From positions 89-64,088 of the forward strand of contig JBAYUQ010000007.1 of assembly GCA_041675005.1 (NCBI GenBank): a stretch of 64,000 nucleotides of DNA. Direction: 5' to 3'. Position numbers and translations under genes: made by a program. This document shows positions 480 to 63,208 of this stretch, piece by piece. The DNA is from Candidatus Kapaibacterium sp. Lineage in GTDB: Bacteria; Bacteroidota; Ignavibacteria; Kapaibacteriales; UBA2268. The stretch's first letter is position 1. Each line of letters starts with the position of its first letter. Below the pieces are notes generated by a model. It saw only the letters and a list, made by a program, of their open reading frames with translations, was not told the origin of the DNA and did not search any database.

Positions 480-871
480 TGGAAGGGAAAATCACATTTA
501 AGGGGTTAGATATTGAATATGAATACCCATACTTTATCTCATCATCAGGGAGAACTATCACAAGTATCCAACCAAAGGTTACTATTGAGATTCCTGAGAT
601 ACAAATAGAAGTAGCAATAATAACTCATGTAGTTTACAACTTTGATGTAGCAATGGAATATATGAGAGATGTATTTCCACATCTCTTTATCAAAGTGCCT
701 GAATTTGATTCTGGTATTGACGACTTTAATCCGTTAGCATACTTGAATATGAAAGAGCCGATTAGACATGAATTATTTAGAAATATAATTGAGTCTGCAA
801 TGATACAAGACATACTAGAAGCAATACAAGAACACGAAAATCAAAATATACCTGAGGCAGCGAGATATTAA
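479..871 (+). CDS. hypothetical phage protein
   Basis: 130-aa ORF, translationally coupled to neighbours. No recognisable motif. Confidence 0.45.
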   Translation: MEGKITFKGLDIEYEYPYFISSSGRTITSIQPKVTIEIPEIQIEVAIITHVVYNFDVAMEYMRDVFPHLFIKVPEFDSGIDDFNPLAYLNMKEPIRHELFRNIIESAMIQDILEAIQEHENQNIPEAARY

Positions 872-1326
872 TGGAACTTAGAAAGATAAAATACAACAGC
901 GATAAAGTTGAGATCAAATATGATATTGATAACGACTCTTATAGGCTATCATCTTATGATAAGCCAAGACCAGAATTCATTGAAGCAATGCAGAAGCTAG
1001 TAGAGCCATTAGTTGAGATATGCGAATTTCAAGAAGGGTATGGAGATACTATTGATATAATAAGTGTTTCAATATCTCATTCAAAAGGAATAATGGGTGC
1101 AACAATTACAGGATTAAAGAAGCTAGATACTAGTTATGCACCATTGGTAATTAACACACCTCATTTACCAACAGAAGATTATTCTGGTAACAATCCGAAC
1201 GCACCAATATTACCAGATATTGCTGTTAAAAGAATTGAAGGATTAATTGAGGAAGCAGAGTTATATATAAATGGCAAAAGAAGCCAACTATCCATTTTGG
1301 ATGATATGGAAGTAAGTAATAATTAG
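871..1326 (+). CDS. hypothetical phage protein
   Basis: 151-aa ORF; start overlaps the previous stop. Confidence 0.45.
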   Translation: MELRKIKYNSDKVEIKYDIDNDSYRLSSYDKPRPEFIEAMQKLVEPLVEICEFQEGYGDTIDIISVSISHSKGIMGATITGLKKLDTSYAPLVINTPHLPTEDYSGNNPNAPILPDIAVKRIEGLIEEAELYINGKRSQLSILDDMEVSNN

Positions 1327-1337
1327 GAGGACACCTT

Positions 1338-1649
1338 ATGAGTGAATTAGGGAAATATCGAAAATGTGATATTTGTTGTGAATGGCACTGGACTGGTAAC
1401 AATTGTGCCCCAGCTTACGAGGTATTCCACGATGAGTATATGGGTGAGGAATCCCAAACTGTTAGAGCACATAGCTTATCTGGTGCAGCTGAAAAGTACG
1501 CACAGAAATACAATGAAGGTGATGGGGAATACACAATGATGGACGGTGAGGAAATAATCTTAAGAGTAGTTAAGGGTAGCGATGAAGCTACATTTTCGGT
1601 AAGTGCTACACCGAGTATTGATTATCATGTTAATGAGGTGGAACAATGA
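1338..1649 (+). CDS. hypothetical phage protein
   Basis: 103-aa ORF preceded by AGGAGG at 1324-1329. Confidence 0.5.
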   Translation: MSELGKYRKCDICCEWHWTGNNCAPAYEVFHDEYMGEESQTVRAHSLSGAAEKYAQKYNEGDGEYTMMDGEEIILRVVKGSDEATFSVSATPSIDYHVNEVEQ

Positions 1650-6977: not shown

Positions 6978-7066
6978 AAAAATACCTCTAAAATGTTTTA
7001 AAAATAAAATTAAAGAGTTAAGTTTGTAAGTATCAAATTTGGATGTAGTAATTTTTTTTTGATACT

Positions 7067-7108
7067 AGGTCGATCTTAACTCAAAAAGTTTTTATCGACC
7101 TTTTTATT
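7067..7108 (+). terminator. Hairpin AGGTCGAT-N19-ATCGACCT followed by TTTTTATTT (terminator-like on + strand only)
   Basis: Read directly. On the minus strand the hairpin is followed by an A-run, so it is orientation-specific. Confidence 0.3.
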
Positions 7109-7203
7109 TCATAATCATTTTACCCTCCTGAAAATATAAAATATAAAAAATACTTTCTCAATTCTTATTGCAAAATTATAAAATTGAATTAAATTCATAT
7201 TAC

Positions 7204-7249
7204 TCTAAAAGTTCAGTGAGGAATTTTTAGACCCCACTGAACTTTTAAG
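7204..7249. promoter_or_regulatory. Palindromic copy pair of the motif TAAAAGTTCAGTG (12-bp perfect inverted repeat, 17-nt spacer)
   Basis: CTCTAAAAGTTCAGTGAGG at 7204-7222 and its reverse complement at 7232-7249. The same 14-mer recurs at 9475-9488 and 9526-9539. Confidence 0.5.
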
Positions 7250-7261
7250 TTAATCAGATAA

Positions 7262-7534
7262 TTATGAATGATTTGTAATAGTTTCTTCTTTGGGCTCTCC
7301 CCAACCTTCTAATACCGTTTTTAAAGTAGCCCCCATTATTGTACCCGAAGGACCTAATTCAGAAGGTAGAACACAAGAATTAGGTGCTGAAAACATTGAT
7401 TCATATACAACAAGCCATTCACTTTGACCATCTTGTTTATATTTAAGTTTTAGCCCTTGCGTACCTAAAGGTAAATCATATGTTAGAGTATTATTCGTCC
7501 AATTGTAATTCGTTGGTGAACTTGATGTTGACAT
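7262..7534 (-). CDS. hypothetical protein (uncertain)
   Basis: 90-aa ORF overlapping the 3' end of the TPR gene by 44 nt in another frame. Could be real or an artefact. Confidence 0.25.
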   Translation of the reverse strand: MSTSSSPTNYNWTNNTLTYDLPLGTQGLKLKYKQDGQSEWLVVYESMFSAPNSCVLPSELGPSGTIMGATLKTVLEGWGEPKEETITNHS

Positions 7535-8930: not shown

Positions 8931-9451
8931 TTTTTTATCTCTTTTAATCTATTTCCAATAATATTATTTGCATAGCAATCACCTTCTCCAGTAATGCTCC
9001 AACTAATATTACAGCCTGAGCTCTCTATTCTTTTTAAAATTAAATATGGTATGAATTTTTCGTTTTCAAAGAGTTGTCTTATTTCACCCTTTTTGAAATC
9101 ACGTGCTATTTCATACTCGATAATATTCTCATAATTTGATTCTATCCAAGCTTTAATTCTTTCCTTTTGTATATGGTAATCAAACTCCTCATTGACAATA
9201 GAACTATTTCTATTCTCATCGGGATTCCATTTAGATTTACCAATTCCAGCATAGAGCCAATCAATTGAATATCCAGCTCTAAATATCCTTAGACTAATTT
9301 TTTGAATATTATTCTCTTGCTTTAAATATTTATTTAAAGACTGATGAGATATATCAATTTCATTGGCGAACTCAGATTTAGTTAGTCCTGATAATCTAAA
9401 TAACTTTCTAAATCTTTCAATAATGTCATTTTCATTGTTCGAATTTATCAT
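8927..9451 (-). CDS. XRE/Cro-like helix-turn-helix regulator
   Basis: N-terminal 'SGLTKSEFANEIDISHQSLNKYLKQE' is an HTH_XRE-like signature. 4-nt overlap with the downstream TPR gene (operon). Confidence 0.5.
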   Translation of the reverse strand: MINSNNENDIIERFRKLFRLSGLTKSEFANEIDISHQSLNKYLKQENNIQKISLRIFRAGYSIDWLYAGIGKSKWNPDENRNSSIVNEEFDYHIQKERIKAWIESNYENIIEYEIARDFKKGEIRQLFENEKFIPYLILKRIESSGCNISWSITGEGDCYANNIIGNRLKEIKK

Positions 9452-9471
9452 TTCTTTAAAACTTCCTGTTG

Positions 9472-9545
9472 CTCTAAAAGTTCAGTGACGCAAGATAATT
9501 AAAAAATCATTCAATTTCATTGGCGTAAAAGTTCAGTGAGGGCTG
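9472..9545. promoter_or_regulatory. Two direct copies of CTAAAAGTTCAGTGA(C/G)G, 51 bp apart, in the divergent promoter region
   Basis: 9472-9490 and 9524-9545. Located between the HTH gene (minus, start 9451) and the small-peptide gene (plus, start 9626). Confidence 0.5.
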
Positions 9546-10001: not shown

Positions 10002-10877
10002 ATGTTTAAAGAAGCATATGAAATAGCAAGCAAATACATAAAACCACTTATTGTGGTGCTCAGGTACCAAGACAAATCTGTTGAATGTGGATTAGGAACT
10101 TTAATTATATTAAATGACGAAGGCTGGATAATGACAGCTGCACATAATCTAAATGCTTCTAATGCATATAATCAACACCAACTTGAAATAAAAATGTTTC
10201 AAGAAAAGGTTGATAAAATTAACGCTAATCCAAAACTAAATGAAAATAAAAGAAAAAGACTTATTAAAGCAGTTAAAAGTAATCCTAAATGGATTACTGA
10301 TTTTATAATTTGGTTAGGTGCAGACAAAATACAGATTAAAGAGTCTTTCGTTTATAATGACCACGACATTGCATTTATACGTATAGACAAATTATTTATG
10401 AAAGGAATTACAGAATATCCAAAAATTAAAGACCCTCGAAATTTAAAACAGGGAACAAGCTTATGTAAGTTAGGATTTCCATTTTATCATATTAACGCAA
10501 CTTTTGATGAAACAACAAATAAATTTATTTTTCCTAAAAATACTTTCCCAATACCTAGATTTCCAATTGAAGGGATCTATACTAGAAATTTAATTACTGG
10601 TAAAAGCAATGATAAGACAATGGATGTTATGTACATTGAAACATCTTCACCAGGTCTAAAGGGGCAAAGTGGTGGTCCTATAATAGATATAGATGGTAAT
10701 ATTTATGCTGTACAATCTCAGAATTACACGCTACCGCTTGGTTTCAAAGGGAAGGAAGAAATAAATGGTATTGAGATTGAAGAAAGTCAATTTATAAATG
10801 TTGGTGTTGGAGTTCATACAGAGACTATAGTCACCCTTTTGAAAAAACACAAAATCAAACACGACATTGCACCATGA
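10002..10877 (+). CDS. trypsin-like (S1 family) serine peptidase, no signal peptide
   Basis: Triad-like motifs: 'MTAAHNL' (His), 'DHDIAFIRI' (Asp), 'GQSGGPII' (Ser, GDSGGP-like). Confidence 0.65.
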   Translation: MFKEAYEIASKYIKPLIVVLRYQDKSVECGLGTLIILNDEGWIMTAAHNLNASNAYNQHQLEIKMFQEKVDKINANPKLNENKRKRLIKAVKSNPKWITDFIIWLGADKIQIKESFVYNDHDIAFIRIDKLFMKGITEYPKIKDPRNLKQGTSLCKLGFPFYHINATFDETTNKFIFPKNTFPIPRFPIEGIYTRNLITGKSNDKTMDVMYIETSSPGLKGQSGGPIIDIDGNIYAVQSQNYTLPLGFKGKEEINGIEIEESQFINVGVGVHTETIVTLLKKHKIKHDIAP

Positions 10878-10995
10878 ATAATAAACTGCTTATCACACAA
10901 GTATCATGTGCTTACTGCGGAATGTTATAATGGTAAATGCAATAGTCTCTGGAGTAGATAAGCAGAATAATTGAAATATAGTTAATAGGAATAAA

Positions 10996-11502
10996 ATGAA
11001 AAAAGATATAAATTACGAAGTAGCATTTATTGTTTCAATTATAGGAGGAATGTTAGGAATCGATCGGTTCTATGTTGGGGATATTGGTCTTGGCATTTTG
11101 AAGCTTTTCACAGCTGGTGGTTTTTTTGTCTGGTATATTACAGATATTATAAAGTTTAATAAGTTAAGAATTGAACAGCGAATTGAGCAAAATAAGTTAT
11201 CAGATGAAGAGAGGGAAAAAAGAAGAAAAGAAGAATTGGAAAAAGAGGAACAAAAAAAACGACTTTTACTGTCAAAATATAGTCCCGAGATAGTTGCAAG
11301 AATACAATTAAAGAAACCTGCAATTGGGGATACTTTTGATATCATTAAAGAGATGTTCGGAAATCCTGTTAAATATGATAAAGAAGAAACGGCGAAAACT
11401 ACTAAATATACTCTAAAGTATTACGAAGGACAAAAGGGATCCTACAAGTTAGTGATTGAACTTAAGGATGATTTAGTTTCAAAAATAACTGATAAAAGAT
11501 AA
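10996..11502 (+). CDS. TM2-domain membrane protein
   Basis: 'GGMLGIDRFYVGDIGLGILKLFTAGGFFVWYITD' matches the TM2 signature (G..G.[DH]RFY.G......QL.T.GG.G.W...D). Followed by a KE-rich linker and a C-terminal soluble domain. Confidence 0.65.
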   Translation: MKKDINYEVAFIVSIIGGMLGIDRFYVGDIGLGILKLFTAGGFFVWYITDIIKFNKLRIEQRIEQNKLSDEEREKRRKEELEKEEQKKRLLLSKYSPEIVARIQLKKPAIGDTFDIIKEMFGNPVKYDKEETAKTTKYTLKYYEGQKGSYKLVIELKDDLVSKITDKR

Positions 11503-11516
11503 ATAGAGAGTTAAGA

Positions 11517-11786
11517 ATGTCAATAGAATTAAAAAGAAGTGATTTAAAGTTTGAATATATTTGGACGAGAGACAATGGTGACTCTCTTAGTACTGATGAG
11601 CGAGATAGAAGTAAAATAGATTTGGATGAAGGATATGAAGTGCTTCATTTCTTAAATTCATTATATAAAGACTTAAATATTAATATTAAAATAGAGGCTT
11701 TGTATATTGAAGATTTACTATATCAAAAACCTGGTAAATTACAGATTAGGAAGGATATTAAGGATTGGATAAAAACACAAATCTGA
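11517..11786 (+). CDS. hypothetical protein
   Basis: 89-aa ORF, AAGAATG start context. No motif. Confidence 0.35.
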   Translation: MSIELKRSDLKFEYIWTRDNGDSLSTDERDRSKIDLDEGYEVLHFLNSLYKDLNINIKIEALYIEDLLYQKPGKLQIRKDIKDWIKTQI

Positions 11787-11801
11787 AATAGTGTTATAAT
11801 C

Positions 11802-12428
11802 TTATTTTATAACATTTATAAACCAATATGCTTCAATCTTATCTGCTAATATTTGACCTGAGTGTACAACTCTCCCCAAATTTCGTTTATTCTCTTCACT
11901 CGGCCAAGGATCTCGAACAATTATATTTGTTATTATAGGTCCAATTTGAGATAAATAATAGCTTACTGCAGTTACAACAACAGCATGACCAGAATTAGGA
12001 CCCGTTTTATAAGCTATAATGACAGGCCTTTGATTTATAAGTTGTTCGATAAGTGTAGCTGGTGTAGGGGCTCCTCTTCCCATTAAAGCTTGGACAGTAT
12101 AAGCATATCCATAACTATCAATACCCCAATTGTTTAAGTTATAATGAATCGATTCTAGTGAACCTCCCCAGTTAGGTAAGTTTCCATAATCATCAGTTCC
12201 ATATGTACGATAAACAATTTGTTCTTGACTAATATTTACACCATAGCCAGTTAAAACCATTTGGATTGATGCAGCCCAACACCATTGAGAACTATTTTGT
12301 TTCGCTGAATAAAAGTTTACAACTCCAGATGGAACACCGACAGTTATTTGTTGTGCATTAGTATTTAATGTTGCGATAGCTAACAATAAAGGAATACAAA
12401 AAGTGAATTTAATATTGACATGTCTCAT
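11802..12428 (-). CDS. secreted papain-like cysteine peptidase-like protein (Peptidase_C39_2/BtrH-like)
   Basis: Signal peptide (MRHVNIKFTFCIPLLLAIATLNTNAQQ). 'QNSSQWCWAASIQMVLTGYG' matches the C39-like Q...C.xAS..M.L nucleophile motif; downstream 'SGHAVVVTAV' is a candidate catalytic His. Confidence 0.55.
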   Translation of the reverse strand: MRHVNIKFTFCIPLLLAIATLNTNAQQITVGVPSGVVNFYSAKQNSSQWCWAASIQMVLTGYGVNISQEQIVYRTYGTDDYGNLPNWGGSLESIHYNLNNWGIDSYGYAYTVQALMGRGAPTPATLIEQLINQRPVIIAYKTGPNSGHAVVVTAVSYYLSQIGPIITNIIVRDPWPSEENKRNLGRVVHSGQILADKIEAYWFINVIK

Positions 12429-39689: not shown

Positions 39690-40814
39690 GTGAAGGTAAT
39701 CAATTTACTGGCGACACTTGGTATTACCATCGGTGTGGCCTCTATTATATTTGTAGTGTCTGTTTTGAGTGGATTTCAGGTGATGAACTACGAGCAGATA
39801 CTCGGCTATGACCCCCACGTTCGGGTGAAGTTAAGCGGTAAAAGTGAATTGGATAATTCGCTAATTAAATTTGTACGTGATTCGAAGGAAATGAGGGACT
39901 TTGCACTAACAACTGAGAAAAAATCTGCACTCCGAGTGAAAGATAATTTCAAAGTGGCTCGATTACTATATATAAACCCGATGAGCAAGAATTATCTTGA
40001 CGGACTGAACCAATCGCTGCTATTTGGGAAATTGCAACCAAACTCGAATAATCTGATAATGGGTGCCAAATTAGCTGAAGGATTAGATATAACTAGAGGC
40101 GATGAAGTAGAGCTAATAACTCCCGAAGCACTAGAGAAATCGGCCCGTATGTTCCGACAATTGGACGGCTCGAAATATGTGGTAAGTGGAATATTCTACA
40201 GTAGCGTCAAGGATTATGACGAGAAGCAGATATACATATATGACAATAATCCGAAAAAAGACTTCATAGATATAAAGCTAACGGATTACGAACTGACCGA
40301 TGATTTTGTAGCTAAGCTCCAAAAATCATACAAGGACTTAGTTATATTCACTTGGAAAGATTTGAATTCTGATTTTTATAGGATAATGCAATTCGAGAAA
40401 GTAATGACAATAGTCGTACTATTCTTGATAATATTAATCTCGGCATTCAATATATTAGCATCGCTCTCGATGACAGTAGTCCAAAAGAAAAAGGACATCT
40501 CAATTCTCCGAACTCTGGGTATGTCAACTAATAGAATAGTCGCAATATTCAGAAATGAAGGTGTATTAATAGGAGTACTCGGCACATTGCTCGGCACTAC
40601 TATTGGGCTAATACTAACGTATTTGCAGGAGACTAGAGGACTAATTATGTTCGGTCAGGGAATAACTATACAATCGGCATTCCCTATCAGCTATGAGTAC
40701 GAAGTATATATCGCCGTTGTCCTTATTTCTATACTGCTATCTTGGGGAGCAACCTATCTACCAACCAAACGAATCTCAAAAATAGATATACTAGATGGAA
40801 TTAGGGAAGAGTAG
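39690..40814 (+). CDS. ABC transporter permease, FtsX/LolC-LolE family
   Basis: N-terminal TM, large periplasmic domain, C-terminal three-TM FtsX-like bundle ('ILRTLGMSTNRIVAIF'). Confidence 0.7.
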   Translation: MKVINLLATLGITIGVASIIFVVSVLSGFQVMNYEQILGYDPHVRVKLSGKSELDNSLIKFVRDSKEMRDFALTTEKKSALRVKDNFKVARLLYINPMSKNYLDGLNQSLLFGKLQPNSNNLIMGAKLAEGLDITRGDEVELITPEALEKSARMFRQLDGSKYVVSGIFYSSVKDYDEKQIYIYDNNPKKDFIDIKLTDYELTDDFVAKLQKSYKDLVIFTWKDLNSDFYRIMQFEKVMTIVVLFLIILISAFNILASLSMTVVQKKKDISILRTLGMSTNRIVAIFRNEGVLIGVLGTLLGTTIGLILTYLQETRGLIMFGQGITIQSAFPISYEYEVYIAVVLISILLSWGATYLPTKRISKIDILDGIREE

Positions 40815-40955
40815 AAGGAGCCAAAACTCCCTCCCTGCGTTGCCAGAGTTCTGCATAACCTCGAAATCAGATTTTACTTTCTCAACATCTATTTTTGAGT
40901 ATGTAAAAATAGGGGTAAAGAGTAGTATTAAGCAAATTGTATTTAGTGTTTTCAT
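40791..40955 (-). CDS. small ORF (54 aa) built on copy 1 of the 136-bp module; missing from the ORF track
   Basis: ATG at 40955-40953. Translation MKTLNTICLILLFTPIFTYSKIDVEKVKSDFEVMQNSGNAGREFWLLLLFPNSI*; the first 45 aa are near-identical to the start of ORF 41578-41778. Overlaps the lolE-like 3' end. Confidence 0.3.
   Translation of the reverse strand: MKTLNTICLILLFTPIFTYSKIDVEKVKSDFEVMQNSGNAGREFWLLLLFPNSI
40820..40955. repeat. 136-bp repeat copy 1 (about 88% identical to 41643-41778)
   Basis: Aligned by eye, e.g. GCCAAAACTCCCT...CCAGAGTTCTG...CAGATTTTACTTTCTC.ACATCTATTTTTGAGTATGTAAAAATAGGGGTAAAGAGTAGTATTA... Confidence 0.7.
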
Positions 40956-40978
40956 GTGTTCTCTGTTTTGAGGTTAAA

Positions 40979-41581
40979 TTAATGAATTATTTTTGAACCG
41001 ATAATATCCAAATGTTTACTTGTCTCCAAAAACTGCTTATCTTCAAAACTAATTGTATCAAGACTTTTCGAAAAACCTAAAACTTGTTTTTCAAATTTAA
41101 TTGATAAACTATCAGCATTTCTCATATTATATTCACTTAGTTTGTTCAAAATAGTTATATCATCAAAATAATAAATATGGTAATTAAAGTAGTTAATATT
41201 TCTATCGAGTATTTTTTTATTTATTGTTATTTTAATAATAAAATTAGAGTTAGGTTGAATCCTATAAAACATTGGCACTTCAAATAGTGCTGACTTCAAA
41301 TCATTACCACGAATTTCTGTGTTTAAAAATTTATATTCATCTTCAGAAAAGTATAATTTATTGATTAGAAATTCTGTACTCCAAATATTATCTATATCTC
41401 TATTTTTACGAGTACTGTCATCTAATACAATCCAATTATTGGCAAGTATAAATATAGCGTTATTTGATGTATTTTCTATATTAATTGAATCTATATAATA
41501 CTGAGGAGTAATTTGTGAATTCTTAGAATCACAAGAAATTAAATGAAACAATATAATTGAAATTAGTATTTTCATCATCAT
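40979..41581 (-). CDS. lipoprotein-like hypothetical protein (immunity-protein candidate)
   Basis: Signal peptide with lipobox-like 'LISCDS'. 200 aa. Lies in the array downstream of the RHS toxin tip. Confidence 0.4.
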   Translation of the reverse strand: MMMKILISIILFHLISCDSKNSQITPQYYIDSINIENTSNNAIFILANNWIVLDDSTRKNRDIDNIWSTEFLINKLYFSEDEYKFLNTEIRGNDLKSALFEVPMFYRIQPNSNFIIKITINKKILDRNINYFNYHIYYFDDITILNKLSEYNMRNADSLSIKFEKQVLGFSKSLDTISFEDKQFLETSKHLDIIGSKIIH

Positions 41582-41778
41582 TCCTGTGACTGTTTTTTAT
41601 ACTTCTCTGCACCATTCCTTGTATCAATAGGTGTAAAAGTCAGCCAAAACTCCCTACCCGTGTTACCAGAGTTCTGTATTACCTCAAAGTCAGATTTTAC
41701 TTTCTCTACATCTATTTTTGAGTATGTAAAAATAGGGGTAAAGAGTAGTATTAGTATTATTTTATTTAGTGTTATCAT
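41578..41778 (-). CDS. small secreted hypothetical protein (starts with 136-bp module copy 2)
   Basis: 66 aa; signal peptide MITLNKIILILLFTPIFTYS. Confidence 0.35.
   Translation of the reverse strand: MITLNKIILILLFTPIFTYSKIDVEKVKSDFEVIQNSGNTGREFWLTFTPIDTRNGAEKYKKQSQE
41643..41778. repeat. 136-bp repeat copy 2
   Basis: See copy 1. Confidence 0.7.
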
Positions 41779-42166
41779 AAGGTTTTAAATTTTTTTTAAT
41801 CGAATCAAAATAATATTTAGGCAACACATTTTCGAAATGATGAATATATTTTGATTCTAAATTGTAATACTTTTCATTAATTAATAGAATTTCAAAATTT
41901 ATAATCTCATAATAAATTGTATCTATTATATAATTATGGCTTAGTTTAATACAAGCATGTTGATTAATTAAATTGGGTTTTTCAAGTTCTTTTGAACTGG
42001 ATATACTGTCTAATACTAAAGGGCAAAACCATTCGTCAAACTTTTGTGATTTTATAGAAACATTGTTCTGTATATCCTTGAATTCTAATTTATAACTGTA
42101 GTATTTTGTTTGACATGAAATTTCATATCCTGTTAATATTAAAAGAACTATTATAACCTTAATCAT
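41762..42166 (-). CDS. secreted hypothetical protein (immunity-protein candidate)
   Basis: Signal peptide MIKVIIVLLILTGYEISCQ; 134 aa. Confidence 0.4.
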   Translation of the reverse strand: MIKVIIVLLILTGYEISCQTKYYSYKLEFKDIQNNVSIKSQKFDEWFCPLVLDSISSSKELEKPNLINQHACIKLSHNYIIDTIYYEIINFEILLINEKYYNLESKYIHHFENVLPKYYFDSIKKNLKPYDNTK

Positions 42167-42174
42167 TTAATTAC

Positions 42175-42555
42175 CTACCAAATTTTATAGTTAATTGGAA
42201 AAAATTCATCTGTTAGTTCTATTATTTCTTTAAATTCATTTTTTTTTGAATCCATTCGATTTAGAATCAGTGTGTCACGTTGACAACCTTTAAATAAAAT
42301 GATTATTGTTTTAGTTTGACTTGGGTAAAATTTATTTCTTATATCAATTTTAGACATTAGGGCTTCAAATCGATTAACTATTGAATCATTATCAATTTGA
42401 ATATGTAATTGAGAATCAAAGGTTATAAAACCTTCAATACTTTTTTGATAGCCTTCTTTAGTACCTGAATAAGATTCAGTAAATATTTCAATGCTTGAAT
42501 CTTTTGAAATTAATAAGTTACCAATCAATATAAAAATAAAAATTAATTTTTTCAA
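42175..42555 (-). CDS. secreted hypothetical protein (immunity-protein candidate)
   Basis: Signal peptide MKKLIFIFILIGNLLIS; 126 aa. Confidence 0.4.
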   Translation of the reverse strand: MKKLIFIFILIGNLLISKDSSIEIFTESYSGTKEGYQKSIEGFITFDSQLHIQIDNDSIVNRFEALMSKIDIRNKFYPSQTKTIIILFKGCQRDTLILNRMDSKKNEFKEIIELTDEFFPINYKIW

Positions 42556-42557
42556 TT

Positions 42558-42833
42558 TTATTCTCCTTTAGGTTTTGTATCTGTTGGGGAATCAACCTCA
42601 TAAGATTCTCCACAATCATGACAATCCCTCACACCCTCACCATTATTCTTTGAAATTTCATTCTCACTTGGGATTCTAAAAAGTGAAAACATTCCAATTG
42701 ATATTGAAGTATTCATAAAACTATTTCCTGTTATTACCCTATACTCTTCCAAACTATCCCAACCATCTTCCGTTTTTGCAATGTCACATAGTTGGATTAA
42801 ATATAAAAAAATACCGTAAGCCTCAATCAACAA
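42558..42833 (-). CDS. hypothetical protein
   Basis: 91 aa; 'CHDCGESYEV' could be half of a zinc ribbon. Overlaps the LRR gene end. Confidence 0.3.
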   Translation of the reverse strand: MLIEAYGIFLYLIQLCDIAKTEDGWDSLEEYRVITGNSFMNTSISIGMFSLFRIPSENEISKNNGEGVRDCHDCGESYEVDSPTDTKPKGE

Positions 42834-43845
42834 AAGGGTTACCTTCTTGGTTAATAATAATATCTAATTGTATTGGGGGAGCTACACGTGCATTTAAATC
42901 ATTAAACTCAATATCTACTTGATTTAGGCCTTCAATTTCGAAAATATTATAGTTAAAATCCGATATTATATTATCGTCTAAATATAGGTACTTAAGATTT
43001 TTTAAGTTTACAATATTATCTGGTACATATTTAATTTTATTATTGTTTAACAATAAATATTTAAGTTTATGTGCTTTGAATATTTCTTTTGGAATTTCTT
43101 TTAAGTTCATTCTTACAAAAGAAAGGAATTCTAGACTATCAACATTAAACAATAAATCACTTATGTCCTTATTATTATATACGCTGTTTATACTTAGTTG
43201 AACTAGCCTACAATTCTTATTTATTTTTGGGAGTTCAGATAAATTATCCAATACTAATATTTTTAAATCAGATAAATTATTAATCAGGATTTCATTGTTT
43301 AACAAGTTAACAGCCCTTAATTCTAGAGTCTTTAGATTAGTTAATTTATCCAGTGCAGAAATATTATCTAAAAATAATTCATTATAATCATTTAAAATTA
43401 AAAACTCGATTTGATCAGAAAAATCATTGAAATCTATATTACCAATATATGAATTTCTAATATCAAAAGAATTAAATGCCTTTAAGTTTTTGATTTTTGA
43501 ACTGGTGACAGTATTTTGAATAGTAAGACTTAATTGTGATTCTTGGTAATCACTAAAATCAATTATTTTATCGTTTAAAGAAGAGTTTGCTATTGTAATA
43601 CTTTTCAATTGACTTTTATCTACTTTGGATAAAATTGAATTTAATGAACCAATACACTTATCAATATAGATTGATTCAATTTTAAGATTATTAATAATTA
43701 AATCCGAATTTAATTGTTTTAATTCAAGTTTTAATTCATTTTTTAATTCATTTTTAAATATCAAATTATTATTTAAAGATAAAGTACTATATACGACAAA
43801 GATATTCAGAATAAATATAAATATGCATTTTAAAAATGTTTTCAT
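42823..43845 (-). CDS. secreted leucine-rich-repeat protein
   Basis: Signal peptide. Multiple LxxLxLxxN repeats ('LKYLLLNNNKIKYVPDNIVNLKNLKYLYLDDNIIS'). 4-nt overlap with the upstream toxin gene. Confidence 0.6.
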   Translation of the reverse strand: MKTFLKCIFIFILNIFVVYSTLSLNNNLIFKNELKNELKLELKQLNSDLIINNLKIESIYIDKCIGSLNSILSKVDKSQLKSITIANSSLNDKIIDFSDYQESQLSLTIQNTVTSSKIKNLKAFNSFDIRNSYIGNIDFNDFSDQIEFLILNDYNELFLDNISALDKLTNLKTLELRAVNLLNNEILINNLSDLKILVLDNLSELPKINKNCRLVQLSINSVYNNKDISDLLFNVDSLEFLSFVRMNLKEIPKEIFKAHKLKYLLLNNNKIKYVPDNIVNLKNLKYLYLDDNIISDFNYNIFEIEGLNQVDIEFNDLNARVAPPIQLDIIINQEGNPFVD

Positions 43846-44765
43846 TTAGAGTAGTCCTCTAAAACTTGTCTTGGAATAACAACATCATCAGCTGAATCAT
43901 ACCCATTAAATATAGTCACAGATTCGCTATTACGCATTGCACTACCCCAAAATAAAATTCCAAACTGTAAATTTATTCCATATTTGTGGTTAAGTTGATT
44001 TATTGCATCTCTATCACCCTGTGATGGTGTATCTTCATAAGCACCACCAGGGTGATCGTGTGTAAAATAAGTTAGAAATTGTTCGAGCCCTTTACTAACA
44101 CTTTCTTTTATTGCATTATTTACTTCTGTAGTAGCTTTACCTGAATGTTTAGTAGTTGGCGGATCGAAATTCCGGCCCCCTTCGTAAAATGTTCCTCCAC
44201 CTCCCGCACCACCTGCTTCTCCCTGTGTCAGTGATTTATGAAAACTAAGTATATTTGCTAATTCTTCAGAATTAGCATTTGGCAGCTGAGAACTCATTAA
44301 ACTCATTTTATTAAAATCTATACCAAAAACACCTTTTGAATTTTTTAATAATGAAGCAGAAAATGCAAAATTCGAAGTAGCAAATATATTCCCATCATTA
44401 ACACCATCACTTACTTTAGCTCCTCCATTCAATAGAAAATCTGCATCCCCGTTTACATCTATTCTACTTATCGGGCTATTCATACTATACTGATAAGGTG
44501 TCCATCCGTAGTAGTTACTCCAAAGTGGGTCTATACTTATAAACCTACCAGTCTCATATTCGTATTTTCTCACTCCGTGGTCTCCTAGTTTCGATTCGTT
44601 GTCTTTTTCTTTACCTACCCAGTTAAGTAGGGTGCTTTCTGTTTCAGCTAAGTTACTATTTGTCCATCTATCACCGCCATAAGGGTTGTGCGTTTGCATA
44701 GATGTTGGTGTCGTTAAGACACAATTATTGTCAAATTGTATACAAATATAGAATAAAATAATCAC
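43842..44765 (-). CDS. orphan RHS-repeat C-terminal tip with polymorphic toxin domain (no RHS body)
   Basis: 'YEYETGRFISIDPLWSNYYGWTPYQYSMNSPISRIDVNGD' matches the conserved end of the RHS core (YDPxTGRFxSxDP...Y.Y..NNP....DPDG). A ~200-aa variable domain follows, containing 'EQF...HDHPGGAYEDTPSQGD' (JAB/RadC-like HxH...S..D pattern). Only ~70 aa precede the motif. Confidence 0.6.
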   Translation of the reverse strand: MIILFYICIQFDNNCVLTTPTSMQTHNPYGGDRWTNSNLAETESTLLNWVGKEKDNESKLGDHGVRKYEYETGRFISIDPLWSNYYGWTPYQYSMNSPISRIDVNGDADFLLNGGAKVSDGVNDGNIFATSNFAFSASLLKNSKGVFGIDFNKMSLMSSQLPNANSEELANILSFHKSLTQGEAGGAGGGGTFYEGGRNFDPPTTKHSGKATTEVNNAIKESVSKGLEQFLTYFTHDHPGGAYEDTPSQGDRDAINQLNHKYGINLQFGILFWGSAMRNSESVTIFNGYDSADDVVIPRQVLEDYSK

Positions 44766-44865: not shown

Positions 44866-45270
44866 TTACTCTTGCTCAGGAGCTTCGGTTTCGTCGGTTG
44901 GGTTTTCTGGGGTTTCCATATCTTCATCTATCTCAAAGCGGATGAGTATTCGCTCGCCATTGGAGGCAACGACTTCTATAGATTCTAGATCGCCGTCTTT
45001 TCTACGATTTATATATACTTCTGCTTTGCCGCTAGTATCACCGGGTTTAGATATTTCAACAGTGCTAGTGCTGTCCTCTAGGTCTTCGGACTCTATGAAT
45101 GATTTGTCGTACTTCTTGGATTTTGTGTCGAATTTTGGGACAGAAAATGAGCTATCGAAATCCTCTAACTCTAATGAATTAGATAAATCTTTCGTTGACA
45201 GAAGACTCTCGCCCTCACTTTCGTCCTCGAACTCATTTTCGAATGGGTCTATATTATTAGGATTGCTCAT
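44866..45270 (-). CDS. highly acidic hypothetical protein co-transcribed with the two-component system
   Basis: 134 aa, D/E/S-rich. Its start overlaps the response-regulator stop by 14 nt. Confidence 0.4.
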   Translation of the reverse strand: MSNPNNIDPFENEFEDESEGESLLSTKDLSNSLELEDFDSSFSVPKFDTKSKKYDKSFIESEDLEDSTSTVEISKPGDTSGKAEVYINRRKDGDLESIEVVASNGERILIRFEIDEDMETPENPTDETEAPEQE

Positions 45271-53094: not shown

Positions 53095-53220
53095 TTAGTC
53101 ATCTTCCTCATAACTAATCTTATCAGTTAGGATTTTCTTCATTGATGAAACTAGCATCCAGATAACAAAACCCCATCCAAGTCCCATAAATATATATGCT
53201 CCAGTGCTTATATGTTCCAT
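53095..53220 (-). CDS. 41-aa single-TM small protein, translationally coupled (TAATG) to the NSS transporter; missing from the ORF track
   Basis: MEHISTGAYIFMGLGWGFVIWMLVSSMKKILTDKISYEEDD*. Its ATG shares one base with the transporter stop. The paralogous copy at 55184-55309 is conserved. Confidence 0.55.
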   Translation of the reverse strand: MEHISTGAYIFMGLGWGFVIWMLVSSMKKILTDKISYEEDD

Positions 53221-54818
53221 TACTTACCTCCTTCTATTTCTTCTTGTGTATAAGGTTTACCGTTATTTCGTTTCCAAGCTAACCAAATCATACCACAAAG
53301 TGACATAAATATAGCTGTCATGAATACTCTAGCTCCCCATCTATAAGCTATCTCGCTTTCAACAACTTTTTCCATTAATAATTTGGGAATTGCTTCTTGA
53401 TATGTCCAAGAAACGAGTATAAATATTAAATATGTTGGTGTCACGTATTTGATTATATAATAGAATATCTTAGGTATTTTTATATCCGAACCACGATTGA
53501 TTTCTTCCCAACCCTTATCCATTCCAAATACCCATGCATAAAGTACAACCTCAAAAAGTGAAATTATAACCAGTCCAAAAGTACCTGCCCAATAATCCAT
53601 TTCTTCTAGGAATCCGTGTTCTAAGTAAAGGAAAACAAAGTGAACACCAATAAAGATTAGAATACCAACAGCAACTGTAGCTTTGTTTCTATTAAACCTA
53701 AATTGCTCTTGCAAGAAGGATATGAGCGGTTGTGCCATAGCCACCGAGGAAGTCACCCCAGCTATAAATAGCAAGAAGAACCAAATAAAGCTAAGTACAT
53801 TACCGAATGGAATCTCTGTGAAAACAGACGCCATTGCTATAATACCAAGGTCAAACGCACCACCTTCGGCTATAGTTTGTGTCATTGCCAATCCAAAAAA
53901 GGCAGTTGCAATTGGAATAGCAATCATACTACCGAGTACAACTTCACTAAACTCATTGATACCAGCAGTAGCCAGCCCACTAAGAGCTATATCATCATCT
54001 TTATCTAAGTAACTAGCATAAGCTTGCAATGTTCCCATCCCCACACTTAAGGTGAAGAACACCTGCCCGGCGGCGGCTAGCCAGATTTTGGAATCTCCGA
54101 GGAGCTCAAAGTTCGGTTCCCATATATAATTTATTCCTACAAAAGCACTGAAATCAGGCAATTCCGGATTTGGAGTCCCCAAAAAAAATACCCACACTAC
54201 AAGAACTATACCGAACCCTACGAGTAAGGGAACAGCAATTGTAGCAAATTTCTCTATCCCTCCCGATATACCCTTCGATAATATATAAAAATTAACGGCT
54301 AAGGTGATTAAAAGAAATATATACGCTGGCCATTGTGAATCGAAGTACCCCTCACCTATCCCTTGGTAGGAGTATAGAAAAGTCTTCATGCTATCTAAGG
54401 TATGAAATTCATTGAATGTCCCAATTAGGGAAAAAAAACTAAATCCAAGAGTCCAGGAGATAATATAGACATAGTATATCATAACTAAGGTTGAGATAAG
54501 AATACCAATCGCCCCGATATACTTGGCGACTTTATTTTTGGTAAGAGTATCAAACATCCCCGGTAAACTACCGTGTCCGTACTGACCTCCCCTTCGTCCT
54601 ATCGACCATTCTACCCACATTAGGGGAATAGCAAGCAATATAAAGGCCGTGAAATAAGGTATCATAAACGCCCCACCGCCATTCTGTGCTGCTTGTACTG
54701 GGAATCTCAAAAAATTCCCCAGACCTACAGCATTACCTGCCATCGCAAATATTAATCCTAACCTACTGTTCCAATGCTCTCTTTCAGCCATATTTCCTTT
54801 TATCTTTTTTATCAACAA
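53220..54818 (-). CDS. neurotransmitter:sodium symporter (NSS/SNF) family transporter
   Basis: 'W.SRLGLIFAMAGNAVGLGNFLRFPVQAAQNGGGAFMIPYF' is the NSS signature (TM1 unwound-region motif); 12 TM. Confidence 0.8.
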   Translation of the reverse strand: MLIKKIKGNMAEREHWNSRLGLIFAMAGNAVGLGNFLRFPVQAAQNGGGAFMIPYFTAFILLAIPLMWVEWSIGRRGGQYGHGSLPGMFDTLTKNKVAKYIGAIGILISTLVMIYYVYIISWTLGFSFFSLIGTFNEFHTLDSMKTFLYSYQGIGEGYFDSQWPAYIFLLITLAVNFYILSKGISGGIEKFATIAVPLLVGFGIVLVVWVFFLGTPNPELPDFSAFVGINYIWEPNFELLGDSKIWLAAAGQVFFTLSVGMGTLQAYASYLDKDDDIALSGLATAGINEFSEVVLGSMIAIPIATAFFGLAMTQTIAEGGAFDLGIIAMASVFTEIPFGNVLSFIWFFLLFIAGVTSSVAMAQPLISFLQEQFRFNRNKATVAVGILIFIGVHFVFLYLEHGFLEEMDYWAGTFGLVIISLFEVVLYAWVFGMDKGWEEINRGSDIKIPKIFYYIIKYVTPTYLIFILVSWTYQEAIPKLLMEKVVESEIAYRWGARVFMTAIFMSLCGMIWLAWKRNNGKPYTQEEIEGGK

Positions 54819-55183: not shown

Positions 55184-55309
55184 TTAATCATCTTCCTCAT
55201 AACTAATCTTACTAGTTAAGATTTTCTTCATCGGATATATAACTAGGAGTAGAACAAACGCCCAGCCTAGCCCCATAAAGATTAGTGCTTCCGTAGATAC
55301 TTGTTCCAT
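55184..55309 (-). CDS. 41-aa single-TM small protein, translationally coupled to the NSS paralog 2; missing from the ORF track
   Basis: MEQVSTEALIFMGLGWAFVLLLVIYPMKKILTSKISYEEDD*. Same TAATG overlap as copy 1. Confidence 0.55.
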   Translation of the reverse strand: MEQVSTEALIFMGLGWAFVLLLVIYPMKKILTSKISYEEDD

Positions 55310-56907
55310 TATTTACCTCCTTCTATTTCATCTTGAGTAAATGCTTTTCCGTTGTTACGCTTCCAAGCTAACCATATCATACTAATAAACGAAATCAATA
55401 TTACGACTATAAATACTCTAGCCCCCAATCTGTAAATAATTTCAGATTCTTTCACACCTTTAAATAATAAAGTAGGTATAGCGCTATCAAAAGTCCAGAA
55501 TGTAAGGATAAAGATTAAGTAAGCTGGTGTTACATACTTTATTATATAGTAAAAAATTCGAGGTATTTTAATATCTGACCCTCTACTGAGCTCTTCCCAT
55601 CCTTTCTTCATACCAAATACCCAAGCAAATAGAATCACTTCGGCTAATGATACAACTACGAGGGCAAAAGTTCCTACCCAATAATCTAACTCATCTAAGA
55701 CCCCATGTTCGAAGAATAAGAATACGAAATGAACCCCAAGCAACATTAGAATCCCAACGGTAATAGTGGATTTTTTTCTGTTGAATCTAAATTGCTCTTG
55801 TAAGAAAGAAATGAGAGGTTGCGCCATAGCAACTGAAGATGTTACACCGGCAACAAATAGCAGAATAAACCAAATAAAGCTCAGAATAGAACCAAATGGA
55901 ATATCAGTAAATACTGACGCCATAGCCACAATACCAAGATTAAATGCTCCACCGGCAGCAATATCTTGAGTCATAGCAAGACCGAAGAAAGCAGTTGCTA
56001 TCGGTATAGCAATCATACCGCCTATAATAACTTCACTAAACTCATTAATACCTGCAGTAGCCAAACCGCTAAGAATAATATCATCGTCTTTTTTGAGATA
56101 ACTTGCATAAGCTTGAAGTGTACCCATACCAACGCTTAAAGTGAAAAATACCTGCCCCGCGGCGGCTAACCATATATTGGAAGTAGTTAACAGTGAGAAA
56201 TCTGGTTTCCATATATAGTCGATTCCAACAAAAGTACTAAACTCTGGCTTCGTCGGATCAGGTGTACCTAAAAAGAAAACCCAAACAACTAGTAATAATC
56301 CAAACCCAATAAGCGTTGGTATTGCAATAGTTGCGAATTTCTCTATACCACCAGAAATTCCTTTAGAAAGTATATAGAAATTTATGACCAGAGTTAACAT
56401 TAGGAAGAAATATGCCGGCCATTGTGAGGTGAAATATCCCGCACCGTTACCTTGATAAGAGTAGAGGAAAGTTTTCATAGTTTCTATATCGTGGATACCA
56501 TCGAAAGTACCGATAATTGAAAAGAAACTGAAACCTAAAGTCCATGATATAATATAGACATAATATACCATAACTAAAAATGAAATCAGAAGCCCTAAAG
56601 CCCCAATGTATTTGGCAACTTTGTTTTGGGTAAGAGTGTCGAACATACCAGGTAAACTACCGTGTCCGTACTGCCCACCCCTACGGCCTATTGACCATTC
56701 GACCCACATTAGAGGAATTCCGAGGAGTAGAAAGGCAATGAAATAGGGTATCATAAACGCCCCGCCACCATTCTGTGCTGCCTGTACGGGAAATCTCAAG
56801 AAATTCCCTAGCCCGACAGCATTACCTGCCATAGCAAATATTAGACCTAACCTATTATTCCAATGCTCTCTTTCTGCCATATTCCCCGTATTCCTTTTTA
56901 TTAACAA
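55309..56907 (-). CDS. NSS-family transporter (tandem paralog)
   Basis: Same signature; about 80% identical to the downstream copy over most of its length. Confidence 0.8.
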   Translation of the reverse strand: MLIKRNTGNMAEREHWNNRLGLIFAMAGNAVGLGNFLRFPVQAAQNGGGAFMIPYFIAFLLLGIPLMWVEWSIGRRGGQYGHGSLPGMFDTLTQNKVAKYIGALGLLISFLVMVYYVYIISWTLGFSFFSIIGTFDGIHDIETMKTFLYSYQGNGAGYFTSQWPAYFFLMLTLVINFYILSKGISGGIEKFATIAIPTLIGFGLLLVVWVFFLGTPDPTKPEFSTFVGIDYIWKPDFSLLTTSNIWLAAAGQVFFTLSVGMGTLQAYASYLKKDDDIILSGLATAGINEFSEVIIGGMIAIPIATAFFGLAMTQDIAAGGAFNLGIVAMASVFTDIPFGSILSFIWFILLFVAGVTSSVAMAQPLISFLQEQFRFNRKKSTITVGILMLLGVHFVFLFFEHGVLDELDYWVGTFALVVVSLAEVILFAWVFGMKKGWEELSRGSDIKIPRIFYYIIKYVTPAYLIFILTFWTFDSAIPTLLFKGVKESEIIYRLGARVFIVVILISFISMIWLAWKRNNGKAFTQDEIEGGK

Positions 56908-60591: not shown

Positions 60592-62562
60592 ATGTCTATT
60601 AAAAAACTAAAGAATAAATTAAAAAATGATCAAAGGTTTTTCCCTTATAATCAGAATTATGACTTTAAATATATTAAAGAATATTTAGAAACAAATAATC
60701 TATTAGAAAGTAACTCACAAATAAGTCAAAATGTATTATGCTCAATTTACTTCAATAAATATTTTAAGTATTTTAAAGAACTATATTTTCACACATTTGA
60801 AGTAAATCAAACACCCACAGATGAATTTTTCAAAATACTCATAACCTTGCTTAATAGGGAAGTTTATATTATGGGAAAAAAAATGATGGATTCCATGGAA
60901 AACTTAGATGAGTTTCATTTTGATGAACTAATAAATAGCAAGATAGATTCAATAATACCAGAGTATGGTTTTATTAATGTACAAGGTGGCTTAGAAGCAA
61001 GTCATGAAGCACTTAATACTATAATTAATTTACATCAACTAAACAGACTTATAAGTTCAAATCCTAAAATCGATTTGAGTTCGGTAAAAAATTCATCCAA
61101 ACTTTTAACCTATTCAAACATCTATACATCTGTAAAATTTGCATATGATATGACTGTTTGGGGTAATTATTCAGTTAGCATAGATGACACTAAAGAACTA
61201 ATTAAAATAAGTTGTACGAATACACAACAAGAAAAGATAATTAAGATAGGGCAACGTAGATTTATAAGTAATATGCATTTTAGTATTGCAGTTATGATCT
61301 CAGATATAAAAAAAGAAAATAAAGTTTATAAATTTTTACTTTCAGAGTCAAACAAAAGGCGAAAGCAAAAAAGATTAAAAAGTGTTAAAGTCATTGATGG
61401 AGAAATTTATTTTAATATCGCAAAAGGAAATGATAAAGAGGAAGCAAAAAAAGAATTATTAACTATGTCTGCTGTTTTATCCCATTATCCTTTTTTAACA
61501 AAAGAGCGTCTACTAAATTTTGGAGAACTAAATATTCAAGAAGTCCTCTCAATTTTTATTGTTATTCAAAATTTATTTGAACAAGTATCTCAAATCAGCA
61601 AAGAAGAAACTAATATAATAGATCTCGAATATTTCAACCTCTTTACATTAAAGGTTAAACAAAATGTGCTAATTGAATATGTTTTAACTAAAACTAATTT
61701 TTCGAAATCACAGATTAAAAAAGTTATTGAGGCATTTGTATACAGTCAAGGATATATTAATATTTGGGAAAAACCATTAATTGAGATTAATAATTATCTA
61801 TATCCAGTTTTATTACCTTTATTACAACCTAATTTATTAAGAATTACTGACTATTTATTAGATACAGGAGGGTTTGATTTAAAGAAAAGAGGTAAATTAT
61901 TCGAAAATTATTTAAAATTTGAGCTAATAAATTCACTTAGAGAAAAAGATTATCAAATAAATATTATTAAGAATAATATCTTTAAGAATTCAAAAAAAGA
62001 TTATGAAGAAATTGATTTGATAGCTGAGTTAAAAGGAGTTACTATCATTGCAGAGATAAAGTGTATAAAGTTTCCATTTGAACCAAGAGATTATAACAGT
62101 ATGCTAAAGAGATTAACAGAAGGGACGGAACAAATTAACAGAAAAGTTGAATTTCTAAATAAATTCAAGAATGAGATTAAAGGTTTATCTTTTTTGAATA
62201 AACCTATAGTTAAGCTAGTAATTACAAATTATCCGCACTTTTCTGGATTAGTTATAAATGACGTACCAATTACTGATGCGACATTAATTGATAATTATTT
62301 TATAAATGGGGCTTTTACTAGTGGGCATATTGTATCAAATAAAGATGTGTATGATATTTATGAGGCAAGTAGTTCAAGTATAATTTACTATAATAATGAA
62401 GATGACTTATCCAAGAATCTAAAAAGTTTTTTTCACAATCCAATACCAATTGCTGAGCAACTAAAAGACGTTTATCTTAAAGAAACTCTAATATCGTTAC
62501 CAACTGCAAATCCTAAAATAGTTATGGATTTTTTCGACTTCAAACAATCACATTACATTTAG
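60592..62562 (+). CDS. large hypothetical protein with C-terminal NERD-like PD-(D/E)xK nuclease motif
   Basis: 656 aa, very AT-rich codon usage (N/K/I-rich). Residues ~450-500 'GKLFENYLKFELINSL...DYEEIDLIAELKGVTIIAEIKCIKFPFEP' fit the NERD/restriction-endonuclease-like pattern (E...hD...hhhE.K). No P-loop seen in the N-terminal 440 aa. Confidence 0.5.
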   Translation: MSIKKLKNKLKNDQRFFPYNQNYDFKYIKEYLETNNLLESNSQISQNVLCSIYFNKYFKYFKELYFHTFEVNQTPTDEFFKILITLLNREVYIMGKKMMDSMENLDEFHFDELINSKIDSIIPEYGFINVQGGLEASHEALNTIINLHQLNRLISSNPKIDLSSVKNSSKLLTYSNIYTSVKFAYDMTVWGNYSVSIDDTKELIKISCTNTQQEKIIKIGQRRFISNMHFSIAVMISDIKKENKVYKFLLSESNKRRKQKRLKSVKVIDGEIYFNIAKGNDKEEAKKELLTMSAVLSHYPFLTKERLLNFGELNIQEVLSIFIVIQNLFEQVSQISKEETNIIDLEYFNLFTLKVKQNVLIEYVLTKTNFSKSQIKKVIEAFVYSQGYINIWEKPLIEINNYLYPVLLPLLQPNLLRITDYLLDTGGFDLKKRGKLFENYLKFELINSLREKDYQINIIKNNIFKNSKKDYEEIDLIAELKGVTIIAEIKCIKFPFEPRDYNSMLKRLTEGTEQINRKVEFLNKFKNEIKGLSFLNKPIVKLVITNYPHFSGLVINDVPITDATLIDNYFINGAFTSGHIVSNKDVYDIYEASSSSIIYYNNEDDLSKNLKSFFHNPIPIAEQLKDVYLKETLISLPTANPKIVMDFFDFKQSHYI

Positions 62563-62629
62563 GGTAAATAAAATATTGCCTAAATTAATATATATATTTT
62601 TTGTACTTTTAAAAGAATTTTTTTTAATT

Positions 62630-63208
62630 ATGAATAGCTCCAAAATTGATATTATTTACACTCAGACAGGTAATGTTTGTGTATTTGCTTCGTATTCGAT
62701 TATAATAAATTATTTTTCTAAAGGTAGGAAAAAAATCACAGCACTGTTAAATAAGTATGTTGAAGTTTATAATACCAATCCAACTGGCAATAGTGCTTTG
62801 CAATTAGAAGATTCAATTTACCATCATTATCATTCTTACTGTAAAGCAAACAAATTACGAGGATTTGAGTTTATAAGAGATCAGCATTTAAATGACAAAT
62901 TTTCTACTTACAATTATTGTACTCCTAAAATAATTGCTGTAAATAATAATCACACTGTACTCCCATCTCATCATAATATCAGTTTGAGAAAAAAATTAAA
63001 AAGAGGTGGACTTGCAATGGTTCTTTATCAATCAGGAAATAAACTATTTCATTCAATTGTAATCGGATTTGATAAACGTAAAGGTGGATTTTTTATTAGG
63101 AATCCACAACAATTTCAAAATCATCCTTTATTAAGCAGAACAGACTTCCTAAAAAATAATGATATTTTAGAGTATATTCTTTTTGAGCGTATTAAAAGAA
63201 GGAATTGA
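62630..63208 (+). CDS. hypothetical protein with papain-like Cys/His candidate motifs
   Basis: ORF track starts at a TTG at 62576. The first ATG (62630) gives MNSSKIDIIYTQTGNVCVFASYSII..., a Q..N.C..AS pattern like C39-like/papain-fold nucleophile sites. Later 'LFHSIVIGFD' and 'IRNPQ' are candidate His and Asn/Asp. Confidence 0.4.
   Translation: MNSSKIDIIYTQTGNVCVFASYSIIINYFSKGRKKITALLNKYVEVYNTNPTGNSALQLEDSIYHHYHSYCKANKLRGFEFIRDQHLNDKFSTYNYCTPKIIAVNNNHTVLPSHHNISLRKKLKRGGLAMVLYQSGNKLFHSIVIGFDKRKGGFFIRNPQQFQNHPLLSRTDFLKNNDILEYILFERIKRRN

Follow-up and report, generated by a model that had tools for sequence, protein, structure and literature searches.

Organisation of the locus

The window analysed here is a 64-kb stretch of a metagenome-assembled genome (MAG) of Candidatus Kapaibacterium which carries, between a sigma-54 two-component operon and lolE, a GC-poor island (22-27% GC at 41000-44000, against ~35% in the surroundings) headed by the C-terminal tip of an RHS protein. 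Related contigs or loci and proteins with which the island was compared carry L- and P-numbers, respectively. An earlier annotation of the same DNA (hereafter the original prediction) had described, at 43842-44765 on the minus strand, an open reading frame (ORF) with a variable domain of ~200 amino acids (aa) behind an RHS core end, followed by a leucine-rich repeat (LRR) protein and six small proteins, five of them with signal peptides, which it read as an immunity-protein array. The tip ORF with its variable domain and the seven downstream ORFs are all present where they had been placed. The tip and its immediate neighbour comprise:

43842..44765, minus strand: RHS tip ORF, 307 aa from the GTG at 44765; the likely start is the ATG at 44699, which gives the 285 aa of NCBI protein P0001
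44448..44713, minus strand: RHS-derived core end, from TPTSMQTHNPYGG to the cleavage-site motif IDVNGD, matched by blastn/tblastn to L004, L005 and the main RHS of L007
43845..44447, minus strand: toxin A, a ~200-aa domain of predicted JAB/MPN fold (AlphaFold2, Foldseek and alignment residues)
44219-44217 (E183), 44060-44052 (H236-D-H238), S248 and D251, minus strand: toxin A motif residues
42823..43845, minus strand: LRR protein (340 aa; signal-peptide-like N-terminus), translationally coupled to toxin A, with the LRR start and the toxin stop overlapping (ATGA)

P0001, which is 100% identical to the tip, is a Candidatus Kapaibacterium sp. protein named "RHS repeat-associated core domain-containing protein" at NCBI; residue numbers of toxin A follow the 307-aa form. 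The genes downstream are indeed of the immunity type, but they do not form a parallel array. Three of the six small ORFs (126, 134 and 200 aa) encode genuine small exported proteins or lipoproteins, while the other three (91, 66 and 54 aa) are gene fragments. Judged by the pattern of homology to L001, L004 and L029, which defines three nested cassettes and the deletion of a gene encoding an IgGFc_binding protein, the island is composed of three nested toxin/immunity cassettes, two toxin remnants and two pieces of a neighbouring gene rather than of six parallel immunity genes.

An RHS core end without its shell

Residues 27-106 of the tip match the Rhs_assc_core model TIGR03696 (E=1e-12, 48.4 bits against a cutoff of 32.5), and a profile built from the family matches the C-terminal core ends of solved RHS/teneurin-like proteins (SGS1, 8fjp; Rhs, 8h8a; Tse5, 8cp6; YenC2). 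Homology to RHS genes begins abruptly at 44713, 88 aa ahead of the cleavage site, and the second core-end motif is degenerate in the tip, reading DVNGD and not DPxGL. When the 64-kb window was searched by tblastn with two full-length RHS proteins, nothing other than 44714..44445 was matched; the earlier descriptions of the ORF as a tip without shell, and of the window as devoid of a full-length RHS gene, are therefore both correct, and the profile match and the missing shell together support the view of a displaced RHS C-terminal tip in a polymorphic-toxin island. The concern that the core-end motif might prove spurious under profile search is answered by the same TIGR03696 match, and a full-length RHS with a closely similar core end is found on a related contig: L007 encodes a 2823-aa RHS (PF05593), ~85% identical to the window over the core end, followed by three truncated tips, one of which is a toxin A homolog with an LRR gene. 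A further full-length RHS with a matching core end is found in a more distant Kapaibacterium (L021).

A JAB/MPN-like toxin domain

The variable domain had been proposed to be JAB/RadC-like, and this holds at the level of the fold though not at that of sequence profiles. An AlphaFold2 model computed with the family alignment reaches a predicted local distance difference test score (pLDDT) of 82-93 across most of the toxin A domain (the isolated core end is not confident), and its top Foldseek matches in the PDB are BRCC36, an archaeal Rpn11 homolog, CSN5 and RadC (prob 0.97-1.0, with E only ~2e-3), followed in rank by cytidine deaminases, which have the same superfold as JAB/MPN. RadC (2qlc) gives the best target-normalised TM-score among the fold matches (0.48, root-mean-square deviation 4.0). 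On the basis of this model we accept a JAB/MPN fold for toxin A as a fold-level claim.

Profile searches of the toxin domain against toxin and JAB families, by contrast, found no match in Pfam or NCBIfam: nine members of the toxin A family had no Pfam hit at E<=10 to JAB, Prok-JAB, RadC, DUF4329 or Toxin-JAB1, residues 107-307 matched nothing in NCBIfam or PADLOC, and a PDB sequence search with the tip recovered the core end alone. Membership of toxin A in Toxin-JAB1 (PF15659) was considered and rejected, as there is no profile match, hhalign against the PF15659 member P0038 yields E=0.27, and the partner is an LRR protein and not Imm65. P0038 itself is a sister short tip that bears a genuine Toxin-JAB1 domain.

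The string HDHPGGAYEDTPSQGD (HxH-x9-S-x2-D) lies at 44060..44013 as had been described. In a nine-sequence alignment of the toxin A family E183, G185, H236, D237, H238 and P239 are invariant, and in an eleven-sequence alignment P247 and D251 are nearly so, while position 248 is mostly S, with T or N in some members. The motif glutamate had been sought in 'GLEQF', where it lacks conservation; E183, of 'QGEAGG', is the glutamate that does not vary. The loop from HxH to S, 9 residues long in the window protein, spans 8-15 residues in closer homologs and up to ~20 in the most distant two, P0042 and P0044. The family as a whole is small: clustering at 50% identity gives 8-9 clusters among 1.84 billion representative proteins, and all of its real members are short RHS tips. 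A metagenome scan with a four-sequence toxin A alignment returned two loci only.

An exported LRR protein as regular partner

Homologs of toxin A are directly followed by a gene for a 340-380-aa LRR protein in six independent contexts, namely the window and five others (L007; L008 and L009, of the same contig type; L012; L027, contig-truncated at 227+ aa; and L028), and the LRR proteins of all six begin with a signal-peptide-like hydrophobic segment. Over the five complete pairs the toxins are 31-38% and the LRR proteins 26-34% identical. The window protein falls just below the Pfam cutoffs (LRR_14, 38.2 against 40; LRR_4, 26.8 against 27), which its orthologous partners exceed. Because an exported LRR gene adjoins toxin A homologs in six independent contexts, the LRR protein is likely the cognate immunity protein, and toxin and LRR would form a co-diverging, putative toxin/immunity pair. 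The original prediction had regarded an LRR gene in first position as atypical; given the regular adjacency and the fact that Imm-LRR is a recognised class (PMC3482391), the first-position LRR gene is rather the rule for this family.

An LRR protein of 340-380 aa is large for an immunity protein, it is exported to judge by its signal-like N-terminus, and LRR domains are common in adhesins and effectors (weak NCBIfam matches to XopAE/XopL-type LRRs were also obtained), all of which would suit an exported accessory, such as a factor for target binding or delivery, that accompanies toxin A. We consider this role highly improbable, since the gene always sits directly after the toxin with overlapping stop and start, the LRR diverges in step with the toxin, the same slot in other cassettes holds unrelated small exported proteins or lipoproteins, and Imm-LRR is established as an immunity class (PMC3482391).

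Relics of two further cassettes

Downstream of the LRR gene, as far as lolE, the following features lie in the order of transcription:

42558..42779, minus strand: toxin B remnant, the last 73 codons of a P0004-type tip, 90% identical in amino acids to the P0004 C-terminus; the HEFNH part is missing
42175..42555, minus strand: 126-aa exported protein, orphan immunity candidate B1, the first gene after toxin B in L004 and 100% identical to L004 10891-11271
41762..42166, minus strand: 134-aa lipoprotein-like protein, orphan immunity candidate B2, the second gene after toxin B, ~95% identical to the 124-aa gene of L004
41618..41778, minus strand: IgGFc_binding/T9SS (type IX secretion system) fragment 2, the first ~160-185 nt of the gene and most of the 66-aa pseudo-ORF (41578-41778)
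41579..41617, minus strand: toxin C remnant, the last ~40 nt ('..KYKKQSQE*'), from the match to L029
40979..41581, minus strand: lipoprotein of 200 aa with the lipobox LISC, candidate immunity protein against toxin C; its homolog P0058 stands directly after the tip in L029
40819..40955, minus strand: IgGFc_binding fragment 1, the first 137 nt of the gene, within a 54-aa pseudo-ORF (40791-40955)

The second cassette is recognised by comparison with L004, where an intact tip with an HEFNH motif (P0004) precedes two genes of 126 and 124 aa, in this order, and then an IgGFc_binding/Por_Secre_tail gene of 950 aa, and where 10693..11857 equals window 42753..41594 at 94.5% identity. The 91-aa ORF (42558-42833) is therefore a pseudo-ORF formed by the 3' end of toxin B. 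Toxin B itself (P0004, L004 10001-10888) is a singleton, without homologs in 5.8 billion proteins except for the window fragment; it has no sequence match in the PDB and its single-sequence AlphaFold2 model has a pLDDT of 33, so that the label 'metallopeptidase' is owed solely to the HEFNH motif.

For the third cassette the counterpart is L029, with window 41617..40819 matching 601..1398 at 83% identity and with the gene order RHS tip (toxin C), P0058, IgGFc gene, which makes the 200-aa lipoprotein a candidate immunity partner of toxin C. The toxin C remnant meets IgGFc fragment 2 at a 13-nt microhomology, GAAGTAT(A/G)AAAAA. Every immunity candidate of the island has a signal-like N-terminus, and the tip has none.

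The two IgGFc fragments share a 137-nt direct repeat at 88% identity, which is explained by the 54-aa ORF being a second copy of the IgGFc 5' end. Fragment 1 abuts the 3' end of lolE directly, corresponding to a deletion of ~2.8 kb (the ~950-aa IgGFc gene) relative to the syntenic L001.

Some further observations concern the IgGFc_binding/T9SS gene. Among the alleles compared (L001 11326-14172; L004 11673-14525; L005 11590-14436; L012 5169-8021; L013 from 11594; L029 1262-3619) it is a mosaic, in which the first 140 nt are 74-93% and the 3' part 80-89% identical, while nucleotides 140-1000 are only 49-68% identical between allele classes. The conserved 5' end is the exact right-hand boundary of the toxin/immunity cassettes. 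A copy of it also lies upstream of tip P0008 at L005 9828-10003 (equal to L011 9666-9841), as a 58-codon ORF with an ATGA overlap to the tip start; that it might donate a signal peptide to this tip was rejected, as it is out of frame and joined by the stop/start overlap. The ~22 nt after 'GREFW' in the L005 copy resemble, in 20 of 24 nt, the IgGFc::lolE junction of the window, despite the absence of lolE from that place; the likeness may be due either to chance or to transfer between the two sites.

Cassette exchange among relatives

In the close relative L001 the flanks are 97-100% identical to the window up to ~44690 and the toxin is unrelated. The site there holds P0006 as its toxin, another lipoprotein (148 aa) and the IgGFc gene in intact form, and the core end is only ~80-95% identical, from which it follows that the whole cassette was exchanged, core end included. 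That the syntenic locus holds another toxin and another small gene also speaks against the downstream ORFs being a conserved, unrelated operon. A second chromosomal site, behind a biotin-carboxylase operon, houses the same module, with a toxin that varies by strain (P0004, P0008 and P0005 in L004, L005 and L008), and overall near-identical core ends carry at least five toxin types.

These comparisons suggest a history in which alleles from other strains would have recombined, on the left side, at or just before the conserved start of the core end, while the joins on the right side may have been illegitimate or mediated by microhomology, each event displacing the resident toxin and leaving its immunity genes behind. 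Read in this way, the locus would be a legible record of three successive toxin replacements.

The acidic 134-aa ORF upstream of the tip (44866-45270) was considered as a part of the module and rejected; it is identical in L001, but the counterpart genes at the second site are unrelated. Truncated RHS core ends that bear different tips also stand in tandem, in arrays of 2-4, in other MAGs of Kapabacteria, Ignavibacteria and Chlorobiota (L016 10001-14137, L017, L014 and L018), often with no full-length RHS within the 20 kb examined.

Stored module or stand-alone toxin

Taken together, we consider it probable that we are dealing with a hypervariable island of toxin and immunity genes in a Kapabacteriales bacterium, whose shell-less tip is an inert, stored module and whose immunity relics have been retained. 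Without shell or signal peptide the tip would probably be inactive, becoming usable after recombination into a full-length rhs gene, and the three immunity sets would protect the cell from neighbours armed with toxins A, B and C.

Several observations weigh against this interpretation. No full-length RHS of this strain was found within the 64-kb window; in species-representative genomes the core end lies inside a long RHS ORF at only 2 of 16 loci; and among the 1.84 billion representative proteins no full-length RHS that ends in toxin A was encountered. The tip, moreover, retains an intact ORF with an ATG and promoter-like motifs, although a scan for sigma-70-type promoters there was not above chance, and the ratio of nonsynonymous to synonymous substitution rates (dN/dS) of the core end, 0.10-0.30, fits translated genes, a constraint that could be inherited from full-length parents. 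The JAB assignment, finally, is drawn from a predicted structure, with the Foldseek E-values of ~2e-3 and the lack of sequence-profile matches given above.

Several of these points would suit short tips that are a working class of stand-alone toxins in Kapabacteriales, whose translation starts at an ATG of their own and whose export or delivery requires no RHS shell, perhaps with the involvement of the adjacent T9SS IgGFc_binding protein. Short forms account for 14 of the 16 genome loci and for all members of the toxin A family, their ORFs are intact with ATG and promoter-like motifs, the core-end dN/dS is low (0.10-0.30), and the module of tip, immunity gene and ~950-aa IgGFc_binding gene recurs at two chromosomal sites and in several MAGs. 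We nonetheless judge such a class unlikely. Among more than 40 tips, the point at which homology to RHS begins varies between 34 and 325 aa ahead of the cleavage site, and there is therefore no fixed N-terminal boundary; the idea of such a boundary was dropped on these grounds, no conserved N-terminal domain being present, and a conserved functional N-terminus would not be expected to produce this scatter of truncation points. The tip lacks a signal peptide, the window strain has lost the IgGFc gene but kept the tip, and the IgGFc allele classes track the genome and not the toxin type. L007, with the same core end, has the classical layout of a main RHS followed by orphans.

A more far-reaching version, to which we give a still smaller chance, would make the shell-less tips of Kapabacteriales a working system of their own. 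Their cassettes would be swapped between two conserved arms, a left one formed by the RHS core end and a right one by the first 140 nt of the polymorphic T9SS IgGFc_binding gene, and the tips would be translated and delivered without a cocoon. The toxins, among them a new (iso)peptidase of JAB fold that an exported LRR protein would block, would hit the envelope of neighbouring cells.

Site of action of toxin A

Within our preferred interpretation of a stored module, toxin A would be a zinc-dependent hydrolase of JAB/MPN fold. Since the immunity candidates are all exported and a full-length RHS of a more distant Kapaibacterium (L021) has a Sec-type signal peptide, its target would most likely lie in the envelope or periplasm, where it might act as a peptidase, isopeptidase or amidase and be blocked by the LRR protein.

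Zhang et al. proposed nuclease activity for RadC-like/Tox-JAB domains (PMC3482391), and toxin A could accordingly be imagined as a nuclease acting in the cytoplasm, the more so as RadC (2qlc) is among its fold matches and has the best target-normalised TM-score (0.48). An exported immunity protein, however, cannot guard against a cytoplasmic nuclease, and the partner LRR proteins have signal-peptide-like N-termini in all six contexts; Imm65, the partner of Tox-JAB-1, is a lipoprotein (PMC3482391). A nuclease is thus, in our estimation, a doubtful candidate. The envelope action that we infer for these toxins disagrees with the 2012 proposal for Tox-JAB, and the exported partner argues for JAB-type polymorphic toxins acting in the cell envelope and not as nucleases; no experimental characterisation of JAB-type polymorphic toxins turned up in our literature search.

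Relation to known systems

Loci of this kind are already well known, and it is the setting, a little-studied phylum, that differs. The closest parallel is provided by the rhs orphans of enterobacteria (Salmonella Typhimurium rhs-orphan; PMC3967940), in which a 5'-truncated rhs with a core end likewise precedes a variable toxin and an immunity gene, the homologous core end is where toxins are swapped or displaced, and orphan tips can be activated by recombination (PMC3967940). The window differs from these in having no main rhs adjacent or anywhere within the 64 kb, in being a conserved chromosomal hot spot beside a T9SS surface-protein gene, in that its immunity candidates are exported, and in its host, which belongs to Kapabacteria and not Proteobacteria and in which no type VI secretion system context was seen. 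The accumulation of toxin remnants and intact immunity genes downstream is shared with orphan cdiA-CT/cdiI arrays and orphan immunity clusters (Serratia Rhs, PMC10539506), but in the window the relics are separated by repeated 5' pieces of the unrelated IgGFc_binding gene, which mark the right cassette boundary. The pattern of an orphan toxin with accumulated immunity genes, mainly known from Proteobacteria, is hereby extended to Kapabacteria, known here from MAGs only.

The modestly new element is the JAB-like toxin family paired with exported LRR proteins, by which we define a small JAB-fold toxin family that is absent from Pfam and strictly paired. In Bacteroidetes RHS proteins, Tox-JAB-1 (PF15659) is paired with the lipoprotein Imm65 (PMC3482391). 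The resemblance comprises a JAB-fold toxin at the RHS C-terminus in the FCB (Fibrobacteres-Chlorobi-Bacteroidetes) group, the layout of E, HxH, S and D residues, exported immunity, and the existence of a comparable short tip, P0038, that bears a genuine PF15659 domain. Toxin A departs from it in having no PF15659 match (hhalign E=0.27, as above), a longer and variable HxH-to-S loop, and an LRR partner. As for Imm-LRR (Zhang et al. 2012), the genes of that class too stand directly behind those of polymorphic toxins, but the LRR protein of the window has a JAB-like RHS tip as its strict partner and bears a signal peptide; the class was listed beside type V secretion system toxins and in polyimmunity loci, and the FCB group/Bacteroidetes are not among the taxa listed (PMC3482391).

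Other features of the window

Elsewhere in the window, a low-GC (24-27%) pair of ORFs of 656 and 210 aa at 60592-63208 on the plus strand, without Pfam or PADLOC match and with a D...E.K-like string EIDLIAELKGVTIIAEIKCIK in the 656-aa ORF, may represent a defence or mobile island. At 53220-54818 and 55309-56907 the minus strand encodes two paralogous members of the sodium:neurotransmitter symporter family, arranged in tandem, each 532 aa long and starting with TTG. A second low-GC stretch (26-27%) at 7000-9500 contains a 479-aa tetratricopeptide repeat protein and a 174-aa ORF with a weak match to DUF7726.

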